DNA of 16,612 bases from a virus (IMGVR_UViG_2778261179_000013:1-16612); one strand, 5' to 3'; positions 1,156-14,037 are shown, counted from the first letter of the stretch. Notes: generated by a model not told the origin, from the sequence alone. Program-made: numbers and translations.

Positions 1156-2379
1156 ATGGCTGGCGAACTTAACAAACTGAGCGACAGGAAGTTAAAGGGA
1201 TTACATGGTATCCCGGCCAGTAAGATTGAGTTCTATGCTGATGGTGCCGGGCTGAGCGCCAAGGTAACTAAAGTTGGTGGTATTAGCTGGGTGTTTACTT
1301 ACCGACTCGACGGGCAGAAGCTGCATCGTCTTACTCTGGGACGATACCCGGATATGAGCCTCAAAGAGGCCCGTTCTTCGCGTGATAAATGCCGCCAATG
1401 GCTGGCCTCAGGTAAAGATCCAAAGCACCAGTTGGCGCTGACCACTCAGGAAACGCTTAAACCGGTCACTGTTAAGGAAGCTATCGAATACTGGATACGC
1501 GAATATGCAGAAGAGAACCGCGCGAATGTTGAAAGGCACAAAGCGGAGCTGCGTAAACACATTTATCCTTATATTGGGAAAATGGCGCTCGCTGACTGCG
1601 AAACCCGTTATTGGCTTGACTGCTTTGACAGGATGAAAAAGAAAACGCCAGTTGCTGCGGGTTATGTGTTCCAGATGTGCAAGCAAGCCCTGAAATTCTG
1701 CCGGGTTCGTCGCTATGCTGTGAGTACCGCGCTGGAAGATTTAACAATTCCAGATGTCGGTAAAAAACAGGCAAAAAAAGACCGGGTATTAAACGATAAA
1801 GAGGCTGGCGATTTATGGGCTGCCATTACCTCTGGAACTTGCTTCATGCCTTACTACACCAGGCTACTGACAATCTTAATGGTGTTTGGGTGCCGAACGC
1901 AGGAGGCCAGACTGTCAGAATGGAGTGAATGGGATATGGATGCCTGGGTCTGGACAGTTCCCAAAGAGCACAGCAAGGGCGGCGAGAAGATTGTAAGACC
2001 TGTGCCGGATGCCATGCGCAAATTCATTGAAATACTGCATGATGAAACGAAATTATCCGGCCTTTTGCTTGGGTCGGTTAAAGGCAGTGAAGCGGTAAGT
2101 CAGTGGGGCCGCGGTGTTTATAAAAAGCTGGGGCATTCTGAACCATGGACACTGCACGATCTAAGACGAACTTTAGCAACGCATATGAATAATATGGGTA
2201 TAGCACCACACGTTGTCGAACAGTTGTTGGGGCACTCAATGCCGGGAGTTATGGCGATTTATAACCGTAGTCTGTACTTGCCTGAGAAACTGGATGCGTT
2301 GAATAAATGGTATGACCGTCTCGATATTTTGGCGGGTAATCACTCGAATATTGTTATTTTAAAGGCTGGTGAGAAATGA
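1156..2379 (+). CDS. int: Tyrosine recombinase, P4-type phage integrase
   Basis: 407 aa. N-terminal arm-binding-type region (GLSAKVTKVGGISWVFTYRLDGQKLHRLTLGRYP), catalytic region with HDLRRTLATHM (HxxR) and the LGHSMPGVMAIYNRSLY tyrosine motif. Confidence 0.95.
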   Translation: MAGELNKLSDRKLKGLHGIPASKIEFYADGAGLSAKVTKVGGISWVFTYRLDGQKLHRLTLGRYPDMSLKEARSSRDKCRQWLASGKDPKHQLALTTQETLKPVTVKEAIEYWIREYAEENRANVERHKAELRKHIYPYIGKMALADCETRYWLDCFDRMKKKTPVAAGYVFQMCKQALKFCRVRRYAVSTALEDLTIPDVGKKQAKKDRVLNDKEAGDLWAAITSGTCFMPYYTRLLTILMVFGCRTQEARLSEWSEWDMDAWVWTVPKEHSKGGEKIVRPVPDAMRKFIEILHDETKLSGLLLGSVKGSEAVSQWGRGVYKKLGHSEPWTLHDLRRTLATHMNNMGIAPHVVEQLLGHSMPGVMAIYNRSLYLPEKLDALNKWYDRLDILAGNHSNIVILKAGEK

Positions 2380-2678
2380 AAAAGATAAATAAAATGACCG
2401 AATTACCGAAATGGTTTTCATTGGACAATTACAATTCTATCAATGGGCTGAGTGATCTTGATTTAATTAATCAGTTAGCTATGAGAATGGAAGTTGCTAA
2501 TGATGATTTTGAATGGCTTGATACCTATCCCGGAGCAAGAAATGAGTTCGCTTCATTTATGGAAGAAAGATTTAGTAACCCAATTCGGCCACTGAGCGGA
2601 AAATTATTTGCAGAAAAAATAAAAAGAAAAAATATTCTGAATGGCAAATGGATTCCGTCGGAGGTGTTGAGCCTTTAA
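2376..2678 (+). CDS. Hypothetical protein (AT-rich cargo ORF)
   Basis: 100-aa ORF whose ATG overlaps the int stop (ATGA at 2376-2379). Markedly AT-rich compared with the flanking genes. No motif recognised. Confidence 0.4.
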   Translation: MKKINKMTELPKWFSLDNYNSINGLSDLDLINQLAMRMEVANDDFEWLDTYPGARNEFASFMEERFSNPIRPLSGKLFAEKIKRKNILNGKWIPSEVLSL

Positions 2679-3163
2679 GATTAATTGATGTGATGCAGTT
2701 GTCTAAGAAAGCCGCTCATTATATTGATGAAAATAAAATTAATCGCTCATTGCGTGGACAAAAAAGGTCTGTAAGTAAGACCATAAGCGATAATGATCAA
2801 ATGCATATTACTTTAGATTTGTCTTGGCCTGATGAAATTTTATTAAGCGATTTGGCTGCATTGTTGCCAATATGGCGAATGGATCTTGAAAGGAAAAGTG
2901 AAAATAGTTGTAAGTTAAGTAATAGCTGGAGTGTAATCAAAAAGAAAATATTCGATTGCAAGATATTGCCAATGTTAGACCTTATGGAGTGGGCTAAAAT
3001 TAACAATGCAACAATCACTAACAGAGTTTTATCTTTAGCCCTGTTTCCTAATGCAGAGTATGACGCCATTGGTATCGCTCAAACGATCAAACCGTTCATT
3101 AGAAATTTTTCCGCAGATTTTTCTATAGAAATATTAAAGCGCAAAGCTATGGATTCATTTTAA
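2648..3163 (+). CDS. Hypothetical protein (AT-rich cargo ORF); start uncertain (alternative ATG at 2693)
   Basis: 171-aa ORF in a different frame, overlapping the previous ORF by 31 nt just after an A-rich run (2606-2632). Either a separate gene or the distal half of a frameshifted gene. No motif recognised. Confidence 0.45.
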   Translation: MDSVGGVEPLRLIDVMQLSKKAAHYIDENKINRSLRGQKRSVSKTISDNDQMHITLDLSWPDEILLSDLAALLPIWRMDLERKSENSCKLSNSWSVIKKKIFDCKILPMLDLMEWAKINNATITNRVLSLALFPNAEYDAIGIAQTIKPFIRNFSADFSIEILKRKAMDSF

Positions 3164-3266: not shown

Positions 3267-3551
3267 ATGCAAAATATCACCTTTATCCCGCCAAATCCTG
3301 AGCAGCGCCGCACCCTTTTAGAGGAGTACGGCTTTAAGTTCGACCGTCGAATCCGTGAAGAAGAATGTAGCGAGATCACCAGCCTTTCCCGTTCCAGCCG
3401 CTGGAAGATGGAACAGCAGGGGCGCTTCCCTCCGCGCTGTCACTTTGGCCGCAATAGCTGTGCCTGGCTTCTTTCGGATGTGCTCTGGTGGGTTCGTAAT
3501 CCGCCAGCAGTAGAGAACGTCAATAACCCGTACAGCCGCAAATCTGCTTAA
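3267..3551 (+). CDS. alpA: AlpA-family phage transcriptional regulator (helix-turn-helix)
   Basis: 94 aa. EITSLSRSSRWKMEQQGRFPPRCHFGRNSCAWLLSDVLWW matches the AlpA pattern (tGlSRst.Y ... G.FP ... G.rsv.W ... eV..Wl). GGAGG lies upstream of the ATG. Confidence 0.7.
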   Translation: MQNITFIPPNPEQRRTLLEEYGFKFDRRIREEECSEITSLSRSSRWKMEQQGRFPPRCHFGRNSCAWLLSDVLWWVRNPPAVENVNNPYSRKSA

Positions 3552-4378: not shown

Positions 4379-4708
4379 TTTTGCATAACTCAATCAGGGT
4401 TGCGCAGAATTTGAGCCGACGAAATTCGCACGCGCAAATCAAGCTCGGTGATATGCCGAGTTTGAACAACCGCGTACTTTTAACGTACGGACATAGCAAC
4501 CCATTGAATCATCTTAATTATCGCGAAATGCGAGAATTGGCGAGCAACGAACACGAACAGTATTCGGGTTCGCCTGAACATCAACACTGCTTAGGTTCAG
4601 AGGTTCCGACGAATAACGTAGAGAGCTGCAATGGCAGCGCATTTTTGCTCTACGAGGGAAATCAACAACGTACAGTTTTGTACCGTAATCCAGATTTGGC
4701 TTACGAGA

Positions 4709-5637: not shown

Positions 5638-5852
5638 GACAGGTTCCTTTTGAAGTCCTGATGCACGCTGAAAATGCCCTTTCTGAAAGCGAAGGAGCCT
5701 ATGAGGTTCTCAGCATGTGGCTAGACAGTATTCCTGAAGGCGAGGAGTTCCACGGTGAAGCGTGCAAGGTAAGCGCAATCATGTCGCTGCTGCATAAATC
5801 TATCGGCGAGCTGGTGAAAGCGCGGGAGGCTTACAGTGAAAAACGCGCCTAA
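5634..5852 (+). CDS. Hypothetical small acidic protein
   Basis: 72-aa ORF with GGAGA upstream; overlaps the start of the replication gene. Confidence 0.5.
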   Translation: MRQVPFEVLMHAENALSESEGAYEVLSMWLDSIPEGEEFHGEACKVSAIMSLLHKSIGELVKAREAYSEKRA

Positions 5853-7605
5853 CGTGAAAACCCTCCCACGCGACAAAATGGAGGAGGCCATCATCTTTGC
5901 CGGAACAGGAGCATGGAAAGCAGCTCAGGATTACCAGAAAGGTAAAGATGAGCATGGCGATGAGGTGCCGCCGGTTGTTCTGGATCATACCCAGCTGGCG
6001 GAATTACCCCACCTGCGCATTGTTGATAAAGGACGCCGATTTGCCCGTGTCTGTCAGGCCGGACTTATCGAACAAAACCAAATCAGTATGATTGCCAATA
6101 AGTTGTGTGAGGCTGGCGTTACCAATGCTGAGTTTATCAACGAAAAAGGTGAGAAAGAGGACTGGACGCCATTAATGAAGCGTCTGGAAGACGAGCCCCT
6201 AATGGTGACTACGAGGGGTAGCGCTACGCCAGCGCTTAACCAGATGGGAGCCAGCCAGCGCGGGGAAGTTCTGCTTGCTCATTACGATGGCAATCTGGCG
6301 ATCCATGCTGATTCCGACACGGTTCATCATTACAACGGCGTGGTGTGGGTTCCGCTTTCGGATAAAGAGCTGCAGCGAGAAATGGCGCAAATTTTTATTG
6401 ATGCCGAAGTCGCCTATTCGCAGAACGCGATTAAATCCGCTGTCGATACAATGAAGCTGGGTCTGCCAGTGATGGGTAACACAGCCCGAAATCTTATTGG
6501 TTTCAGCAACGGGGTTTTTGATACCCGGTTAGGGCAATTTCGACCACATGATAAAAAGGACTGGCTTATCGTTGCGAGCGAATTGCCATTCAGCGAACCA
6601 GCAGAAGGAGAGACTCTGGCAACCCATGCGCCGAACTTCTGGAAATGGCTCCGCCGCTCTGTGGCGGATAATGACAGAAAATCAGACCGCGTACTGTCTG
6701 CTCTGTTCATGGTGCTGGCGAACCGGTACGACTGGCAGCTGTTTCTTGAGGTAACGGGGCCGGGCGGAAGTGGTAAAAGTGTTATGGCTGAGATCTGCAC
6801 GATGCTGGCCGGCAAAGCCAATACGGTATCGGCAAGCATGGCGGCGCTGGAGAACCCAAGGGAAAGGGCGCTGGTGGTTGGCTATTCGCTGATTATCATG
6901 CCGGATATGACCCGGTACGCTGGCGACGGCGCAGGGATTAAAGCTATCACTGGCGGGGATAAGGTAGCTATCGACCCTAAACACAAAGCGCCGTATTCAA
7001 CGCGTATTCCGGCAGTGGTGCTGGCCGTCAATAACAATGCCATGTCATTCAGCGACCGAAGCGGTGGTATTTCGCGTCGTCGGGTTATTTTTAACTTCTC
7101 AGAGGTGGTACCGGAAAACGAACGTGATCCTATGCTTGCCGAGAAGATTGAAGGTGAGCTGGCCGTTATCATTCGCCACCTGCTTACTCGCTTTTCCAGA
7201 CAGGACGAGGCCAAACAGCTTTTGCATGAGCAGCAGAAATCAGAAGAGGCGCTGGCCATCAAACGTGAAGGGGATTCACTGGTGGACTTTTGCGGCTACC
7301 TGATGGCTTCGGTCGTATGTGATGGCATGTTTATCGGGAACGCCGAGATCGTACCGTTCAGCCCGCGCCGTTATCTGTATCACGCTTATCTGGCTTATAT
7401 GCGGGCTAACGGCCTGAGCAAGCCGGTGTCGCTGATGAGGTTCGGCACGGATATGCCAGGCGCAATGGCTGAATATGGCAAGGAGTACCAGAAGCGCAAA
7501 ACAAAACATGGCATAAGATCAAACGTCACACTTCACGACGATTCAGAAGACTGGATGCCTATGTGGAATGATACTTCTCACAATACCGGAGAAAATCAAA
7601 AGTAA
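5836..7605 (+). CDS. Replication initiator / SF3 helicase of the P4 alpha (D5-like) family (PICI pri-rep-like)
   Basis: 589 aa. Walker A VTGPGGSGKS, a Walker B-like LIIMPDMT region, and a D5_N-like segment (IGFSNGVFDTRLGQFRPHDKKDW). GTG start at 5836 is preceded by GGGAGG with a 7-nt spacer. No EGYATA-type primase motif seen in the N-terminal ~300 aa. Confidence 0.85.
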   Translation: MKNAPNVKTLPRDKMEEAIIFAGTGAWKAAQDYQKGKDEHGDEVPPVVLDHTQLAELPHLRIVDKGRRFARVCQAGLIEQNQISMIANKLCEAGVTNAEFINEKGEKEDWTPLMKRLEDEPLMVTTRGSATPALNQMGASQRGEVLLAHYDGNLAIHADSDTVHHYNGVVWVPLSDKELQREMAQIFIDAEVAYSQNAIKSAVDTMKLGLPVMGNTARNLIGFSNGVFDTRLGQFRPHDKKDWLIVASELPFSEPAEGETLATHAPNFWKWLRRSVADNDRKSDRVLSALFMVLANRYDWQLFLEVTGPGGSGKSVMAEICTMLAGKANTVSASMAALENPRERALVVGYSLIIMPDMTRYAGDGAGIKAITGGDKVAIDPKHKAPYSTRIPAVVLAVNNNAMSFSDRSGGISRRRVIFNFSEVVPENERDPMLAEKIEGELAVIIRHLLTRFSRQDEAKQLLHEQQKSEEALAIKREGDSLVDFCGYLMASVVCDGMFIGNAEIVPFSPRRYLYHAYLAYMRANGLSKPVSLMRFGTDMPGAMAEYGKEYQKRKTKHGIRSNVTLHDDSEDWMPMWNDTSHNTGENQK

Positions 7606-7860
7606 TGGGAAAAGTGTTCACCACTATTCACTGTGGATAAAATCGTTTATATAACAGATATTTAAGGGGTGAACACTTTTTATTGAAGTGTTCACCAAGT
7701 ATTCACCTGTTCACCTTTAAAGGGCTTTTCTTTTAAAAGGTGAAGGGTTAGGGTGAACACTAGTGAATACTTAAAATTATAGTCTTCACCCTGTAACCAT
7801 ATGAATTTGAATGGAAAAAATGCAAAGGTGAACAGGTGAACACTTAAACGCATATTTTTT
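7606..7860. repeat. Iteron array and AT-rich tract; putative origin of replication (P4 ori/crr-like)
   Basis: At least 10 copies of GGTGAACA(CTT) or its reverse complement (AAG)TGTTCACC, e.g. 7612-7622, 7668-7678, 7686-7696, 7709-7716, 7751-7760, 7826-7833, 7834-7844, plus variants (tattcacc, gtgaatac, cttcacc), followed by T-rich runs at 7852-7866. Placement immediately 3' of the replication gene is typical for these satellites. Confidence 0.75.
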
Positions 7861-7878
7861 ATTTTTACGAGGCTGCAT

Positions 7879-8223
7879 ATGGAAATTTTAGGCAACCATA
7901 ACGACAAGTTTCACGGCATCAAATTTCTGCATAGTGCAATTGAAGAAATGAATGAGAAAGCTGAAGTAACTCTGACCGACTATCTGGCTCTTAGGGCTTT
8001 TGTTCTGGCTGAGCGAAGAGAAACTCAGGACTACATTGATGCAATGGATGAAACGTATGCTGATTTGCCCGATGATCTGCGTTCTTACATTGAGCTTCTT
8101 AATGACGTTGCCGCACAGCTATCAAATCCATCACGCTCAAATGGGAATTTAAAATCAATTATTTACGATGCGAGAATATCAAGCGGAAACGCCATGTCTC
8201 ACTGGTTCAGTGTTGATAGATAG
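7879..8223 (+). CDS. Hypothetical protein (AT-rich cargo, gene 1 of a two-gene cassette)
   Basis: 114-aa ORF with ACGAGG 6 nt upstream of the ATG. Acidic and predicted helical; no motif recognised. Compositionally distinct from the flanking replication and head genes. Confidence 0.55.
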   Translation: MEILGNHNDKFHGIKFLHSAIEEMNEKAEVTLTDYLALRAFVLAERRETQDYIDAMDETYADLPDDLRSYIELLNDVAAQLSNPSRSNGNLKSIIYDARISSGNAMSHWFSVDR

Positions 8224-8246: not shown

Positions 8247-9092
8247 ATGCGTACTAATGATGATTTACAGATAATCCGAAAGCATCTGGATGGTGAATTT
8301 GAACAGCGCCTGTTAGACGCTGCGATCAATAACCTTTTGGATGAAAATAATCAGCTTCGGTTCAGCAATTATGCCTATGCACTTAGAGAGCTATTCTTAC
8401 ACGTTCTAAAACGCATGGCACCTGATGAAAATGTTCAACTATGCGAGTGGTTTCCTGGTTTGAATGAAAGAGAGCAGGTTGCAAGAAAAGACTCTTACAA
8501 ATATATCATTCATGGTGGGTTAAGTGATGAATATGTCAGGGATGTACTTGATGTAAATATTGCCGGAGTAATTCCGGGATTGCGTGATGCGTTCTACTCA
8601 TTAAATAAATTTACTCACATAAGCGAAAAGATTTTTCCAATTAATGATGACGATGGCCTAAAAATGGTGGGAGAGGTTGAAGGTTGCATCGGAGCTCTTT
8701 TCACCAAGCTTGATGAGTGTCATAAGGAGATAATTAATAAGCTTTATGAAGCTGTGAGTGAGGCCGCGATACATAGTTCGATAACTGAAACTGTAACATC
8801 AATTGATATTTTATCGACACACAGCTCGGTTGATGAAGTGTATGTTGATGATGTGAAAATAGTAGAAATAAATGACTCTGAAGTAATTTTCTCTGTTAGT
8901 GGCTCTGTAGGTGTCGGGTTGCAATGGGGATCTAATTCCGATTTGCGAAATGACATAGGTGCTGTAGGTAGAGAAACATTCCCATTTACCTGCGAGGTGA
9001 GAAGTCCAGTGTATGCCCCTGAACGTTTAGAGTGTGATGAAGGGGCATTCCATGCAGATACTTCAAGTTGGTGGGAAGGATATTACGACTAA
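8247..9092 (+). CDS. Hypothetical protein (AT-rich cargo, gene 2 of a two-gene cassette)
   Basis: 281-aa ORF with AAGAAGGGA upstream of the ATG. Helical N-terminal region containing an R-x4-H motif (RELFLH) and a beta-rich C-terminal region. Followed by an intrinsic terminator. Confidence 0.6.
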   Translation: MRTNDDLQIIRKHLDGEFEQRLLDAAINNLLDENNQLRFSNYAYALRELFLHVLKRMAPDENVQLCEWFPGLNEREQVARKDSYKYIIHGGLSDEYVRDVLDVNIAGVIPGLRDAFYSLNKFTHISEKIFPINDDDGLKMVGEVEGCIGALFTKLDECHKEIINKLYEAVSEAAIHSSITETVTSIDILSTHSSVDEVYVDDVKIVEINDSEVIFSVSGSVGVGLQWGSNSDLRNDIGAVGRETFPFTCEVRSPVYAPERLECDEGAFHADTSSWWEGYYD

Positions 9093-9128
9093 CAAGTGTA
9101 AATTATTCGTCCTCGCGTTTATTAGTGC

Positions 9129-9160
9129 TTAGCCCGATAAAATTCGGGCTTTTATTTATT
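9129..9160 (+). terminator. Rho-independent terminator after the cargo cassette
   Basis: Stem agcccg (9131-9136) / cgggct (9145-9150) with an 8-nt loop, followed by tttatttatt (9151-9160). Confidence 0.6.
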
Positions 9161-9324
9161 ATTTTCATGTATATGTTGAGAAGTGGCACTCAGACGTGAG
9201 CCGCCACTGGCCGTTAAATCAAGCTGTAGCGAGTACAGCCTGTGGGATGCAGAAAAAGATTTAACGGCCTCCCCTCCAAGCGCTGGTTTCACGTCTCTAC
9301 GTTAATTGATACGGAAACCACTCC

Positions 9325-10491
9325 ATGAAGAAACTACTCGAATTACGCCAGCAGAAAGCCACACTCAAAACCCAGATGCGTTCCATGCTGGACAAAGCCG
9401 ACACCGAAAAGCGCAGCCTGAACGAAGAAGAGGGCAAAAAGTTCGATGAACTCCGCGCCCAGGCTGATGCGCTTGAAGTTGAAATTACCCGCCTCGAAGC
9501 CGTCGCCGACGATCAGCGCAATCTGCCTGGTACTTCCGTTGAAGGTGAGCTAGTAAGCAACGACGAGCTGCGTCACTACATTATGACCGGTGATACCCGT
9601 TCTCTCTCCACGCTGGTGCAGGCTGACGGCGGTTATACCGTTATTCCTGAACTGGACAAAGAGATCATGCGTCAGTTGCAGGATGATAGCGTGATGCGCT
9701 CCATCGCAACGGTAAAGACCACCAAAACCAACGAATACCAGAAACTGGTATCTGTGGGCGGCACTACCGTTAAGCGCGGTACCGAAGGCGAAGCGCGTAC
9801 CGAAACCAGCACGCCGAAGATGGAGCGTGTTGATATCAAACTCAACCCGATCTACGCCTATCCGAAAACCACTCAGGAAATTCTCGACTTCTCTGAGGTG
9901 GATATTCTGGGCTGGCTGTCTTCTGAAATTGCCGACACCTTCACCGCTACCGAAGAGAGCGACTTTGTGAACGGCGACGGTGATAAAAAATCCAAAGGGT
10001 TCCTGTCTTACCCTCGCGCGGCCACAGCCGATAAAACCCGCCCGTTCGGTACGCTGGAGAAGATGGAAGCTGCTGACGTTTCCTCTGATGGCCTGATCGA
10101 CCTGCTGTATAAGCTGAAAGCCAAATACCGCAAAAACGCCGTATGGGTGATGAACTCCAATACCGCGGCCAAACTGCAAAAGCTGAAAAACGGCAACGGG
10201 GATTACATCTGGCGAGATCGTCTGGTTGCCGGTTCTCCCGATACGCTGCTGGGCCGTCCGGTTCAATATCTCGAAACCATGCCAGATGCGGAAGCAGGTG
10301 AAGCGTTCCTTGCTGTGGGCGACTTCAAACGCGGCTATTTCATCGTGGATCACACCACTGGTGTGCGTACCCGTCCTGACAACATCACCGAACCGGGTTT
10401 CTACAAGGTACATACCGATAAATACCTGGGCGGCGGCGTGGTGGACTCCAACGCCATCAAGGTGCTTGAGCTTTCCGGCTCCGGTTCCTGA
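9325..10491 (+). CDS. Major capsid protein, HK97 family (with N-terminal delta/scaffold-like coiled coil)
   Basis: 388 aa. N-terminal coiled-coil region (LELRQQKATLKTQMRSMLDKADTEKRSLNEEEGKKFDELRAQADALEVEITRLEA) and HK97-MCP-like core blocks (GGYTVIPE ... AVWVMNSNTAAKLQKLKNGNGDYIW ... LLGRPV ... GDFKRGYFIVDH). Confidence 0.9.
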   Translation: MKKLLELRQQKATLKTQMRSMLDKADTEKRSLNEEEGKKFDELRAQADALEVEITRLEAVADDQRNLPGTSVEGELVSNDELRHYIMTGDTRSLSTLVQADGGYTVIPELDKEIMRQLQDDSVMRSIATVKTTKTNEYQKLVSVGGTTVKRGTEGEARTETSTPKMERVDIKLNPIYAYPKTTQEILDFSEVDILGWLSSEIADTFTATEESDFVNGDGDKKSKGFLSYPRAATADKTRPFGTLEKMEAADVSSDGLIDLLYKLKAKYRKNAVWVMNSNTAAKLQKLKNGNGDYIWRDRLVAGSPDTLLGRPVQYLETMPDAEAGEAFLAVGDFKRGYFIVDHTTGVRTRPDNITEPGFYKVHTDKYLGGGVVDSNAIKVLELSGSGS

Positions 10492-11101: not shown

Positions 11102-12337
11102 ATGTGGAATATCTGGCCGTTTGGCCGCAAGTCTGAACCCTCTGAGCAGCGCAGCATGACCATTGATGAATTTCTGGCGATGGCAGGGATTCCAAATACC
11201 GGATCAGGCGAGTATGTGTCTGCGGGTACTGCGGAATCTCTGCCGGCGGTCATGAACGCCGTATCAGTTATCAGTGAGGCGGTGGCAACAATGCCATGCT
11301 ATCTCTACCGCGTCCGTAATGATAATGGTCGTGAGGCGCGAGAATGGCTGAGTAATCACCCGGTGGATTTTCTCCTGAACGAGCAGCCGAACGACTGCCA
11401 GACGCCTTATCAGTTTAAACGCACGATGATGCGCCATTGTCTGCTGAACGGTAACGCCTATGCGGTGATCCAGTGGGGCCGCGACGGCCAGCCGCAATCC
11501 CTGCACCCGTATGCGCCGGGGGCGGTTGTTCCTGAGCGTATCGGCCAGCATAAGTACAAATACACCGTTACAGAGCCGTTTACCGGGGCTGTGCGCACCT
11601 ATCTACAGGAAGAGATTCTGCACCTGCGTTACTCCACCGATGATGGCTTTCTGGGGCGTTCGCCTATTACTACGTGCCGTGAGGCGCTGGGGTTAGGTCT
11701 GGCCCAACAGCGCCACGGTGCCAGCATTATGAAAGATGGCATGATGGCGGCGGGCGTCGTCACTACTGCTGAATGGCTCGACAGCGTGAAGGGTAAGCAG
11801 GCTCTGGACGCACTGGAGCGCTACAAAGGTGCCAGAAATGCCGGGAAAACGCCGATCCTTGAAGGTGGCATGGATTATAAGCAGCTGGGCATGAGCAATC
11901 AGGATGCCGAATGGCTGGCCTCTCGTCGCTTCACCATTGAAGACATTGCCCGCATGTTCAACGTGTCGCCTATCTTCCTGCAGGAATACAGCAACAGCAC
12001 CTACAGCAATTTCAGCGAAGCGAGCCGCGCCTTTCTTACCATGACGATGCGCCCGTGGCTGGCGAACTTCGAACAACAAATCAAATCTGCGCTGCTGGTG
12101 GCCTCCCCAGTCCCAGGAACCCGTTATCAGGTGGAGTTTGACTCTGCTGACCTTCTCCGCGCCACGCCAACCGAACGTTATGCCACTTATGAGCGCGGTA
12201 TTAAGAACGGGATCATGAACCCGAACGAAGCCCGAGAGCGTGAGGGGATGCCACCGCGTGAAGGTGGTGACGAATTCAGCCAGGCATGGAAGCAGGAAGT
12301 GAAGATCAGCAAAGACGGCAAGGAAGGTGACGCATGA
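11102..12337 (+). CDS. Portal protein, HK97 family
   Basis: 411 aa. Conserved blocks LLNGNAYAVI, GFLGRSPI, FTIEDIARMFNVSPIFLQE and NPNEAREREGMPP match the HK97-type portal pattern. Its start is 2 nt after the protease stop. Confidence 0.9.
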   Translation: MWNIWPFGRKSEPSEQRSMTIDEFLAMAGIPNTGSGEYVSAGTAESLPAVMNAVSVISEAVATMPCYLYRVRNDNGREAREWLSNHPVDFLLNEQPNDCQTPYQFKRTMMRHCLLNGNAYAVIQWGRDGQPQSLHPYAPGAVVPERIGQHKYKYTVTEPFTGAVRTYLQEEILHLRYSTDDGFLGRSPITTCREALGLGLAQQRHGASIMKDGMMAAGVVTTAEWLDSVKGKQALDALERYKGARNAGKTPILEGGMDYKQLGMSNQDAEWLASRRFTIEDIARMFNVSPIFLQEYSNSTYSNFSEASRAFLTMTMRPWLANFEQQIKSALLVASPVPGTRYQVEFDSADLLRATPTERYATYERGIKNGIMNPNEAREREGMPPREGGDEFSQAWKQEVKISKDGKEGDA

Positions 12338-12962: not shown

Positions 12963-13405
12963 TGCCGTGGCAACCACTACGCCGGTGCAATGAGCCTGGA
13001 TGTAATAAACGGGTGAAGTCTGGCAAGTGTGACGAGCATAAGCGGGATGCCCGCCGACAAAGCGACAGCCGAAGAGGTACGCGAACAGAGCGTGGTTACT
13101 CCAACCGCTGGGGCGAATACCGTCGTCATTTTCTAAAAGCTAATCCGCTGTGTGTCCATTGTCTCAAGGCTGGCGTCTATGCATCGGCAACTATCGTCGA
13201 TCACATCATCCCTATCGAGGGTGAAGCTGATGTGCTGTTCTGGCCCGCCAGTAATCACCAGTCGTTATGCGCTGCCTGTCATGGACGGAAGACAACCACA
13301 ACAGACCCGGTGACGAAGCAGCAGCGTAAAGCCGGTAAGTTCCGCGAGCAGGAAGAAGCAGCACGTCATCGCACCGACTGGATCTATGAGGCAAACAATG
13401 ACTGA
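12962..13405 (+). CDS. HNH endonuclease (packaging-associated)
   Basis: 147 aa. Cys-rich N-terminus (CNEPGCNKRVKSGKCDEH) and an HNH core (CVHC ... DHIIPIEGEADVLFWPASNHQSLCAACHGRKT). Position next to the terminase genes is typical of HNH-cos packaging systems. Confidence 0.85.
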   Translation: MPWQPLRRCNEPGCNKRVKSGKCDEHKRDARRQSDSRRGTRTERGYSNRWGEYRRHFLKANPLCVHCLKAGVYASATIVDHIIPIEGEADVLFWPASNHQSLCAACHGRKTTTTDPVTKQQRKAGKFREQEEAARHRTDWIYEANND

Positions 13406-13550
13406 GCAGGAACAGCAGCGGCTGATTAGTGGGCTGATAAAGCAGCGTGAGTCATGGCAACCAGCCAGACAGAGAGCGCATAAGAAGCCCGTAGCAAAGC
13501 GCATGAGCCAGCGTGACCGGGAGCTTATGGAATGCTTTCGCAACCGCTGA
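13398..13550 (+). CDS. Possible small basic protein (50 aa), unannotated in the ORF track
   Basis: The ATG at 13398 overlaps the HNH gene end and the frame is open to the TGA at 13548-13550, giving MTEQEQQRLISGLIKQRESWQPARQRAHKKPVAKRMSQRDRELMECFRNR. Below the track's length cut-off; low support. Confidence 0.3.
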   Translation: MTEQEQQRLISGLIKQRESWQPARQRAHKKPVAKRMSQRDRELMECFRNR

Positions 13551-13680
13551 CAGGCCGAATGGACGGGGTGGGGGAGGTTTTAAAGACAAACCCCTCTCAG
13601 CGAGGAACCACCCGCCCCCTCAAATTTTTACGCACGGTGATTTTTTTGAAAATAAAACGCGACGGAAACGAGAAATTTTT

Positions 13681-14037
13681 ATGGCAAGACCACCCAAACC
13701 GCCAGCTTACCTTGATGAGTTAGCTGCGCAGCAGTGGAAAGCGAAGGCGAAGCAACTGGCGGAGCGCGGGGATTTGACTCCCGCCGACTGGAACAACCTT
13801 GAGCTTTTTTGCGTCAACTATTCGATGTACCGCAAAGCCGTGGAAGACCTTGCCAGCCGTGGGTTCAGCATTGTTAACAGCCAGGGCGGTGAGAGCCGAA
13901 ATCCGGCGCTGAGCGCAAAGGCCGATGCTGAAAAAATCATGATTAAAATGTCGTCGCTGCTGGGCTTTGATCCGGTAAGCCGCCGCCGGAACCCGGTGGA
14001 AACGGAGGAGGAAGACGAGCTTGACCGTCTGGAATGA
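13681..14037 (+). CDS. terS: Terminase small subunit (P27-family-like)
   Basis: 118 aa from the ATG at 13681: MARPPKPPAYLDELAAQQWKAKAKQLAERGDLTPADWNNLELFCVNYSMYRKA ... The track ORF from 13513 adds an implausible Gly-rich N-terminal extension, so the internal ATG is preferred. Confidence 0.8.
   Translation: MARPPKPPAYLDELAAQQWKAKAKQLAERGDLTPADWNNLELFCVNYSMYRKAVEDLASRGFSIVNSQGGESRNPALSAKADAEKIMIKMSSLLGFDPVSRRRNPVETEEEDELDRLE

Follow-up and report, generated by a model that had tools for sequence, protein, structure and literature searches.

A capsid-forming satellite and the gap before its capsid gene

Capsid-forming PICIs (cf-PICIs) are phage satellites that make capsids of their own and borrow nothing but tails, and the accessible literature describes neither the activation of their head and packaging operon nor its promoter or leader. 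How that operon is switched on is the question raised by a cluster of inverted repeats that lies directly before the capsid gene of one such island.

The window (the whole stretch of viral DNA analyzed, 16,612 nt) is a cf-PICI, as follows from its ORF layout, its Pfam hits, and the annotation of a 100% identical segment located between yhdJ and fis in an E. coli chromosome. The left side of the island carries the genes for the integrase (1156-2379), an AlpA-domain protein of 94 aa (3267-3551; Pfam Phage_AlpA), AntA, and the primase (5836-7605); a cargo gene (8247-9092) occupies the middle; and the right side, up to 15682, is an HK97-type module with the order capsid, protease, portal, head closure, connector, HNH, terS, and terL, which is the gene order published for cf-PICIs of Proteobacteria (bioRxiv 10.1101/2022.09.08.507074). 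The HK97-type major capsid protein gene (9325-10491, plus strand, ATG at 9325) heads this packaging operon, which extends for about 6.4 kb behind the leader and in which a terminator scan found no convincing intrinsic terminator on the plus strand. The leader itself lies in the 232 nt that separate the cargo gene from the capsid gene. The cargo gene is closed by a terminator-like hairpin with a T-run (9131-9160, plus strand; stem AGCCCGA/TCGGGCT, then TTTATTTATT), and other islands have an equivalent hairpin and T-run at this place. Weak Rfam matches to Trp_leader and AgvB at 9063-9157 were set aside as merely this cargo terminator.

The sequence-only reading of the window had reported three stem-forming pairs between the cargo terminator and the capsid start codon. 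All three are present, and they do lie between the hairpin with its T-run (taken there as 9131-9150) and the ATG at 9325; a single arm had been misplaced by 1 base. The pair AGTGGC/GCCACT has its 3' arm at 9203-9208 as reported, and its first arm is at 9182-9187, not 9183-9188. The 12-bp pair, GGCCGTTAAATC (9209-9220) and GATTTAACGGCC (9258-9269), is 100% complementary over 12 nt, and the nested GCTGTA (9223-9228) and TACAGC (9234-9239) belong to a 9-nt pair with 89% complementarity (9220-9228/9234-9242). Two further pairs, of greater importance, had escaped that reading, namely, AGACGTGA (9192-9199) with TCACGTCT (9289-9296) and TGGTTTC (9284-9290) with GAAACCA (9314-9320).

Elsewhere in the island, TerS (13681-14037) is the most conserved protein among leader-bearing islands, with a median identity of 94%, compared with 83 to 86% for capsid, portal, and terL and 66% for HNH. 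The cargo protein contains both "predicted pPIWI-associating nuclease" domains (PF18165 and PF18166); a pPIWI (prokaryotic Argonaute-like) gene is absent beside the cargo gene (the adjoining 7879-8223 was also noted), and the gene, which only 1 of 30 related islands has as well, is at the variable position where cf-PICIs are said to hold defense genes. Just 3' of the primase gene, 7592-7865 holds clustered direct and inverted repeats of the GGTGAACA(C) type, including a pair with 95% complementarity (7697-7718/7824-7845), and looks like an iteron-type replication origin. The DUF6387 gene (2376-3163) is split in the window into two overlapping ORFs in different frames (2376-2678 and 2648-3163); RefSeq annotates a single 262-aa CDS over this span in the matching genome. 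The gap between HNH and terS (13405-13680) contains G-rich and C-rich runs (GGGGTGGGGGAGG ... CCCGCCCCCTC), and the terS start is preceded by ACGGAAACGAGAAA, which resembles the ACGGAAACC of the capsid gene.

The idea that the leader is itself a cos or packaging site was considered and rejected. In LR881103, a virion-derived record of 16,548 bp with the leader at 12111-12295, the record ends lie between HNH and terS, some 4.3 kb past the capsid start; this gap is the likely cos region if these ends are the packaged ends.

A putative promoter upstream of the repeats

Immediately upstream of the repeats, 9150-9177 (plus strand) reads as a moderate sigma-70-type promoter, with a −35-like hexamer TTTTAT (9150-9155), a 16-nt spacer, and a −10 hexamer TATGTT (9172-9177); the −35-like hexamer overlaps the T-run of the cargo terminator. 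A generic promoter scan misses this site, which falls below a 9/12 match. Among 127 unique leaders, the family consensus is TTTwCw for the −35 and TATnTT for the −10 hexamer, and conservation peaks at TTT..C and TAT.TT with the fourth base of the second hexamer variable, a pattern expected of −35 and −10 elements. Because the first hairpin of the leader (H1) begins 5 nt past the −10 hexamer, we infer that transcription starts at about 9183 ± 2. The same 5-nt gap is found in the diverged leader of O157 type described below.

A TCATG motif, often as TTTTTCATG, is conserved within the promoter spacer, where it lies at 9165-9169 in the window, at about 1309-1313 in the O157-type locus L327, and also in Xenorhabdus loci such as L036 and L048. 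The leader families that carry it are otherwise unrelated, and such spacer conservation is unusual. The motif could be bound by a regulator, and as a protein site it has more in its favor than the repeats singled out earlier. Inspection by eye for LexA, CRP, and IHF sites and for boxA/boxB gave no match; a LexA box of the form CTGT-N8-ACAG, as on the SaPI packaging operon, is approached at 9224-9238, which reads CTGT-N7-ACAG and is missing in close relatives (GCTGCGAGAAGTAGC). A search of the rest of the island for a second H1 or promoter motif, such as a shared regulator site would produce, found none. Two stretches near its left end were noted, TTTTCATG close to int (1001-1008) and TTCATGCCTGTATATTGTT upstream of the integrase gene (1057-1075); the latter bears a loose likeness to the capsid promoter core TTCATGTATATGTTG, which could reflect a shared regulator site or coincidence.

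The repeats belong to a conserved, folded leader RNA

Within 9150-9324, this conserved sigma-70-like promoter is followed by a leader RNA some 140 nt long with three hairpins, H1, H2, and H3. The whole leader folds with a z score of −4.05, and none of 200 shuffles was equally stable; taken alone, H2 reaches −5.40 (0/200 shuffles), H1 −2.61, and H3 −2.79. Conservation and covariation across related islands, the check proposed with the original observation, were assessed in an alignment of 106 distinct homologous leaders, whereas promoter and complementarity counts used 127 distinct leaders. In the alignment, 92.9% of the cells of the H1+H2+H3 structure are paired, compared with 37 to 42% when the partners are slid, and double-sided changes account for 200 cells, against 55 ± 6 in shuffles; none of 500 shuffles reached the observed paired cells, double-sided cells, or covariation score of the named structure. 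RNAalifold finds H1 and the base of H2 again, with 12 of 19 pairs compensated. Pairing is thus kept in more than 100 distinct homologues, and the inverted repeats are part of a 5' leader RNA, conserved and folded, that precedes the capsid gene.

The leader occurs in 150 to 153 of 5,426 complete E. coli genomes; in every case it occupies unannotated sequence ahead of a gene annotated as "phage major capsid protein," and its position directly upstream of the capsid start is constant even where the replication and regulation modules of the islands differ. Among the loci fetched, 156 matches to the H1 core were found, and all but two are followed by a capsid start at the expected distance, the exceptions being a locus cut by a contig end and a degenerate copy. 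Sequences fetched via the exact H1 core are uninformative about H1 conservation; the set retrieved by capsid protein, with one genome per species, is informative. It comprises 80 loci, 30 of which have this type of leader, from Escherichia, Enterobacter, Kosakonia, Pantoea, Erwinia, Serratia, Proteus, and some Xenorhabdus. Scanning viral contigs by pattern brought in many others, for the total of 127. About half of the related capsid genes retrieved, mostly from Xenorhabdus, have short, AT-rich, unstructured leaders, and the device is therefore optional and modular. Short pairs of 6 nt such as AGTGGC/GCCACT are common by chance; nevertheless, with fold z scores of −4 to −5.4, pairing kept in over 100 distinct homologues, and a location always at the capsid start in 153 of 5,426 complete E. 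coli genomes, it is barely conceivable that the inverted repeats are accidental and without function.

In a phage collection, three records matched, of which at least two (16.5 kb and 3.8 kb) are too small for tailed phages, and no true phage late leader was alike. Separately, Klebsiella phage P12620-1 (PQ569648.1, 106.5 kb) contains at 102107-102276 a 91% identical copy of part of the leader, either a cf-PICI joined to the phage record or an assembly chimera. Against Rfam 15, no match overlapped 9160-9330 at an E value of ≤10 and none in the whole window reached the gathering score; the O157-type leader likewise gave chance-level matches only. The leader lies outside any described RNA family tested: it has no Rfam match and is not put, a Q/AlpA loading site, a LexA box, or cos.

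A nearly invariant hairpin and a proposed clamp of free sequence

The three hairpins are conserved in different ways. H1 (9183-9207, plus strand; GUGGC-A-CUCA-GACG-UGAG-CC-GCCAC) has an outer stem (9183-9187/9203-9207), an inner stem (9189-9192/9197-9200), and the loop GACG (9193-9196). It hardly varies among the 30 species-representative genomes found through the capsid protein, in which the capsid proteins are down to about 70% identical. Within the family, 3 of its 9 pairs show compensatory change and the rest are invariant (106 leaders); symmetric changes from G:C to A:T are found at 9186/9204 and 9183/9207.

H2 (9209-9269, plus strand; −28.5 kcal/mol) has a 12-bp basal stem (9209-9220/9258-9269) and apical hairpins at 9223-9228/9234-9239 and at about 9241-9244/9250-9253, so that it takes in both the 12-bp and the nested inverted repeats. 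Double-sided changes affect 11 of the 12 basal pairs (106 leaders), and at least eight unrelated stem sequences, for example, GGCCGTTAAATC, TGTCCACCTGG, GCCGCCTGAC, and GGTCGCTTAC, occupy the same position, with G-U pairs among them. On these comparisons, H2 is an RNA stem in which the sequence is immaterial. The suggestion that the 12-bp and nested pairs are a binding site for a helper-phage late activator is therefore not supported: their sequence is wholly replaced between islands while pairing, G-U pairs included, is kept, as expected of an RNA stem and not of a DNA site. Minimum-energy folds of H2 on the two strands were not decisive when G-U pairs were counted (129 versus 143), and the plus strand was the more stable in 70 of 98 cases. 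No conserved leader ORF was found; a 5-codon ATG..TAA ORF in the H2 loop is missing from close relatives.

H2 is followed by a pyrimidine-rich linker, UCCCCUCCAAGCGC (9270-9283, plus strand), which is C/U rich in nearly all family members and predicted to be unpaired. The third hairpin, H3 (9284-9320, plus strand; GGUUUC-A-CGU ... ACG-GAAACC; −12.2 kcal/mol), covers the ribosome-landing region. Its 5' strand is segment D, UGGUUUCACGUCU (9284-9296, plus strand), and its 3' strand, ACGGAAACCA (9311-9320, plus strand), spans the weak GGA ribosome-binding region, 5 to 14 nt before the ATG; for the GGA, at −12 to −10, the predicted probability of being unpaired is 0.01 to 0.04. H3 is conserved, and covariation is neutral toward it (106 leaders): none of its 9 pairs is double sided, 2 are invariant, and 5 show one-sided, wobble-compatible changes. 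The GGTTTC.CGTC of D is invariant in the family.

An alternative helix between H1 and the start-proximal hairpin

The loop and 3' strand of H1, AGACGUGA (9192-9199), are complementary to part of the 5' strand of H3, UCACGUCU (9289-9296). In the window, the resulting alternative helix, H1:D, has 8 bp and a G-U pair and could be extended by two C-G pairs. H1, H1:D, and H3 overlap and are thus mutually exclusive. The complementarity is kept in 127 of 127 family members over at least 7 nt, or with a G-U pair in three; a complement of at least 8 nt arose in 54 of 5,000 dinucleotide shuffles of the window type (1.1%). A variant allele found in 14 sequences, GTGACACTCCGACGGGAGCCGTCAC, combines U9197→G with changes in the inner-stem partner (A9192→C) and the partner in D (A9291→C); this is one covarying pair, probably from a single event, and weak as an argument by itself. 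Variants with A9194→G retain a G-U pair with D.

The stronger support for the alternative helix comes from comparing the window with a diverged homologue, although this sets only two families side by side. Distant relatives of the capsid gene occur in 530 E. coli genomes, mostly of O157:H7 type, and their leader was read from locus L327. Its promoter and H1 read TTTTAC-17-TATTCT, 5 nt, GUGGU-G-CCAG-GACG-CUGG-G-GCCAC. The outer stem and the GACG loop are shared with the window, whereas 3 of the 4 inner-stem pairs differ and still pair (CCAG/CUGG), so that H1, conserved in sequence within the family, has its arms swapped here for another complementary pair. A clamp hairpin (UUUCCCGCCUG..CAGGCGGGAAA) is present, and further on GCGUCCUGG complements without mismatch the 9 nt of CCAGGACGC, made up of the 5' inner strand and the loop; as in the window, this complement sits in the 5' strand of the start-proximal hairpin, and the three helices are again mutually exclusive. 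After that last hairpin (GUCCUGG..CCAGGAC, −14.1 kcal/mol) come U8 and the ATG; the terminator scan missed the hairpin owing to a loop that exceeds the 8 nt of the scan. A complement of this kind appeared in 16 of 5,000 dinucleotide shuffles (0.3%), and 22 of 22 distinct O157-type leaders keep it, with the hairpin and T-run kept in 20 of 22. Across the two families, then, the constant core is the loop GACG pairing with CGUC, with the helix extended to 9 bp on opposite sides.

Sequence-unrelated leaders of Xenorhabdus/Arsenophonus and of Gilliamella/Frischella have the same three-part complementarity around the start codon, and in both families a 5' segment complements the strand that otherwise pairs with the start-codon region. 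Other leader types were also observed. About 80 to 100 nt before the capsid ATG, Xenorhabdus leaders L033 and L049 (with the related L037, L042, L048, L054, and L079) have GGCGGTAG or GCGGTAG as the 5' arm of a central hairpin, the core of the RfaH ops element. In L063 and L067 ("Candidatus Pantoea bathycoeliae"), a G+C-rich hairpin followed by T6 (GCGGCGG..CCGCTGC TTTTTT) lies about 40 to 80 nt before the capsid ATG, and this suggests that leader terminators recur among the relatives of the capsid gene.

The comparison of the two families also bears on whether the elements act as DNA. An operator could be made up of H1, which spans about +1 to +25, together with D, where the core of H1 recurs in inverted form (TCACGTCT); a DNA-binding regulator of the capsid promoter, whether the island's AlpA, a repressor, or a late activator of the helper, would bind there, and the DNA might loop. 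The near invariance of H1 DNA across genera whose capsid proteins are only about 70% identical would suit an operator, as would the palindromic form of H1, its overlap with the putative start site, and its symmetric and compensatory changes, which also fit a palindromic dimer site; alpA, moreover, is present in 24 of 30 long H1-type loci. Yet the O157 type replaces the arms of H1 by another self-complementary sequence and keeps the GACG loop, which is not palindromic, and the complement in D moves from the 3' arm to the 5' arm between the types, as expected of RNA pairing and not of a protein that reads fixed DNA. The A9194→G variants keep their G-U pair with D, H2 between both putative sites is plainly an RNA stem, the regulatory modules differ among islands that share H1, and there is the lack of any H1 or promoter-motif copy elsewhere in the island. 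In a co-occurrence test for an island-encoded partner, the packaging genes alone were universal among H1-type islands. We consider such an operator unlikely.

Folding order and a proposed RNA switch

The order in which the helices would form was followed with minimum-energy folds of growing transcripts. In both the window and the O157 types, H1 and H2 appear first, then H1:D, and then H1 with H3; in the window, H1:D is favored while the 3' end lies at 9297-9315, and H1+H3 is back from 9320 onward. At full length, H1+H3 is favored over H1:D by about 7 kcal/mol on average, among nested folds only, with a pseudoknot that keeps the outer stem of H1 left unscored; a switch would therefore need kinetics or a factor. 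Averaged over the 127 leaders, 8.5 of the 10 nt before the ATG are predicted to be paired in the H1+H3 state, versus 4.7 in the H1:D state.

We favor, with slightly better than balanced confidence, the hypothesis that 9183-9324 acts as a cis RNA switch in the 5' leader of the capsid and packaging operon. Under this hypothesis, about 9183-9324 would be the 5' untranslated leader of the capsid and packaging mRNA, made from the promoter at 9150-9177. The halves of H1 would pair with each other; alternatively, the GACG loop and the 3' strand would pair with D (9289-9296), which otherwise pairs with the region just before the start codon to form H3. H2 would serve as a sequence-free clamp that brings H1 and D near each other, and the unpaired GACG loop as the toehold for pairing with D. 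In the H1+H3 state, the ribosome-landing region would be buried and capsid translation low, and Rho-dependent polarity on the operon may follow; in the H1:D state, the landing region would be free. The scan found no intrinsic terminator in the window leader (9160-9324), in which H3 is followed by ACUCCAUG with no U-tract; any attenuation here would thus act through translation or Rho. In the O157 type, the same sensor would be coupled to the terminator-like hairpin and U8 as a transcription attenuator. Since the leader can pair in two mutually exclusive ways, it is probably an on/off gate for head gene expression, and the simplest reading is an attenuator-like riboregulator that would be translational here and transcriptional in the O157 type. 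The comparisons show the structures, their conservation and covariation, and the alternative complementarity in two diverged families; in vivo operation of the switch and its direction we infer.

The other suggestion of the sequence-only reading, a structured leader for antitermination or attenuation, is supported by the compensatory changes in H1 and H2, the mutually exclusive helices, and the terminator-like hairpin with U8 in the diverged homologue.

Candidates for setting the switch would be a protein or RNA on the invariant H1, polymerase speed or pausing, and the choice of start site. No known ligand- or protein-binding motif was found in the leader of the window, and there is no convincing minus-strand promoter-like site for an antisense input at the leader. 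Intramolecular antisense pairing of 4614-4631 with the H3 loop was examined and dropped, as the 11-nt complement is at chance level and falls in a variable stretch.

A leader that does not switch would also account for part of these observations. It could stabilize the mRNA, with a 5' stem acting against RNase E/RppH, or provide an RNase III processing site. H1 starts at or next to the putative 5' end, H2 is long and stable at −28.5 kcal/mol with its sequence immaterial, and H1+H2+H3 is the predicted equilibrium structure, all of which a static leader would share. Such a leader, however, needs neither an invariant loop nor its complement, which two diverged families keep inside the start-proximal hairpin; it gives no reason for a terminator-like hairpin right against the start codon in the O157 type; and the placing of a −12 kcal/mol hairpin where ribosomes land to translate the most abundant virion protein speaks for regulation. 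A purely static role consequently seems improbable to us.

Comparison with known leader systems

The proposed switch resembles terminator/antiterminator/anti-antiterminator leaders, of trp type or controlled by protein or RNA as in the countertranscript attenuation of pT181 and pIP501, which likewise have four consecutive segments forming the exclusive helices 1:2, 2:3, and 3:4 and in which the outcome is decided during transcription, as it would be here. The O157-type homologue shares with them a hairpin and U8 directly before the gene, whereas the 3:4 hairpin of the window has no U-tract, so that its output would be translational. The present leader also differs in that neither a leader peptide nor an input by protein, tRNA, metabolite, or antisense RNA was found, and in having segment 1 at the very 5' end of the transcript. 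Translational leaders that use long-range anti-Shine-Dalgarno pairing or kinetic folding include the MS2 maturation-gene leader, the rpoS leader opened by DsrA/RprA, and the start-site switching of pyrC. As in these, a hairpin buries the ribosome-binding region, an upstream complement can free it, and the state may depend on the folding order or the transcript start; there is no homology, and in the present leader a conserved 5' hairpin, whose loop would be the toehold, itself contains the freeing segment.

Among phage systems, the put RNA of HK022 consists of two adjacent stem-loops, transcribed just after the promoter, that act in cis to confer factor-independent antitermination (PMC9378689). 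H1 and H2 could similarly bind the transcribing polymerase, which would then withstand terminators or Rho throughout the 6.4-kb operon. Both systems are phage related, the architecture is that of HK022 putL, with two stem-loops of about 70 to 90 nt right after the promoter (PMC9378689), and the sequence conservation of H1 would be expected of a polymerase contact. Set against this, putL and putR as read from NC_002166 share only the pentamer AGACG with H1 and no similarity beyond it, no conserved −10-like pause element is visible in the leader, and H2 is free in sequence whereas both put stems contact polymerase (PMC9378689). The packaging operon, as described above, offers no convincing plus-strand intrinsic terminators for such an RNA to overcome. 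Nor would a put-like RNA account for H1:D and D:H3, the conserved complementarities that involve the start-proximal hairpin and have no counterpart in put. We regard a put-like or other processive antitermination RNA as very unlikely.

The loading sites of lambdoid Q proteins and of Pseudomonas aeruginosa AlpA combine a protein-binding element at the promoter, a sigma-dependent pause, and a downstream terminator (PMC9371919). The conserved TCATG likewise lies in the spacer of the promoter, as do the binding elements for Q and AlpA, and the O157 type shares a downstream terminator-like hairpin, while the window has no terminator. Direct reading of the early transcribed region (9183-9207) revealed no TAnnnT pause element. 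For P. aeruginosa AlpA, residues up to 142 are cited and an N-terminal segment forms the ring in the RNA exit channel, whereas the island AlpA has 94 aa. These systems, too, leave H1:D unexplained.

Implications for capsid-forming satellites

The leader is a candidate for a new family of cis-regulatory RNAs with more than 100 distinct members across Enterobacterales, in which one sensor is apparently joined to two different output stages. Riboswitch-like elements are built in this way, as one conserved sensor with different outputs. The GACG loop and its CGUC partner offer a concrete, mutable handle on how the head operon of a cf-PICI is switched on.

A further-reaching hypothesis, which we offer tentatively and hold to be rather doubtful, is that the GACG hairpin H1 is the docking site of a trans factor, a protein or RNA of the helper, the island, or the host, that gates the invasion of the start-proximal hairpin by the loop and that the leader would represent a new class of riboregulator with one sensor and interchangeable outputs, a terminator in the O157 type and masking of the ribosome site here. 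If this were so, the satellite would time its own capsid production to helper infection, and a helper or host factor that reads H1 would supply the connection, so far missing, from helper infection to capsid production by the satellite.
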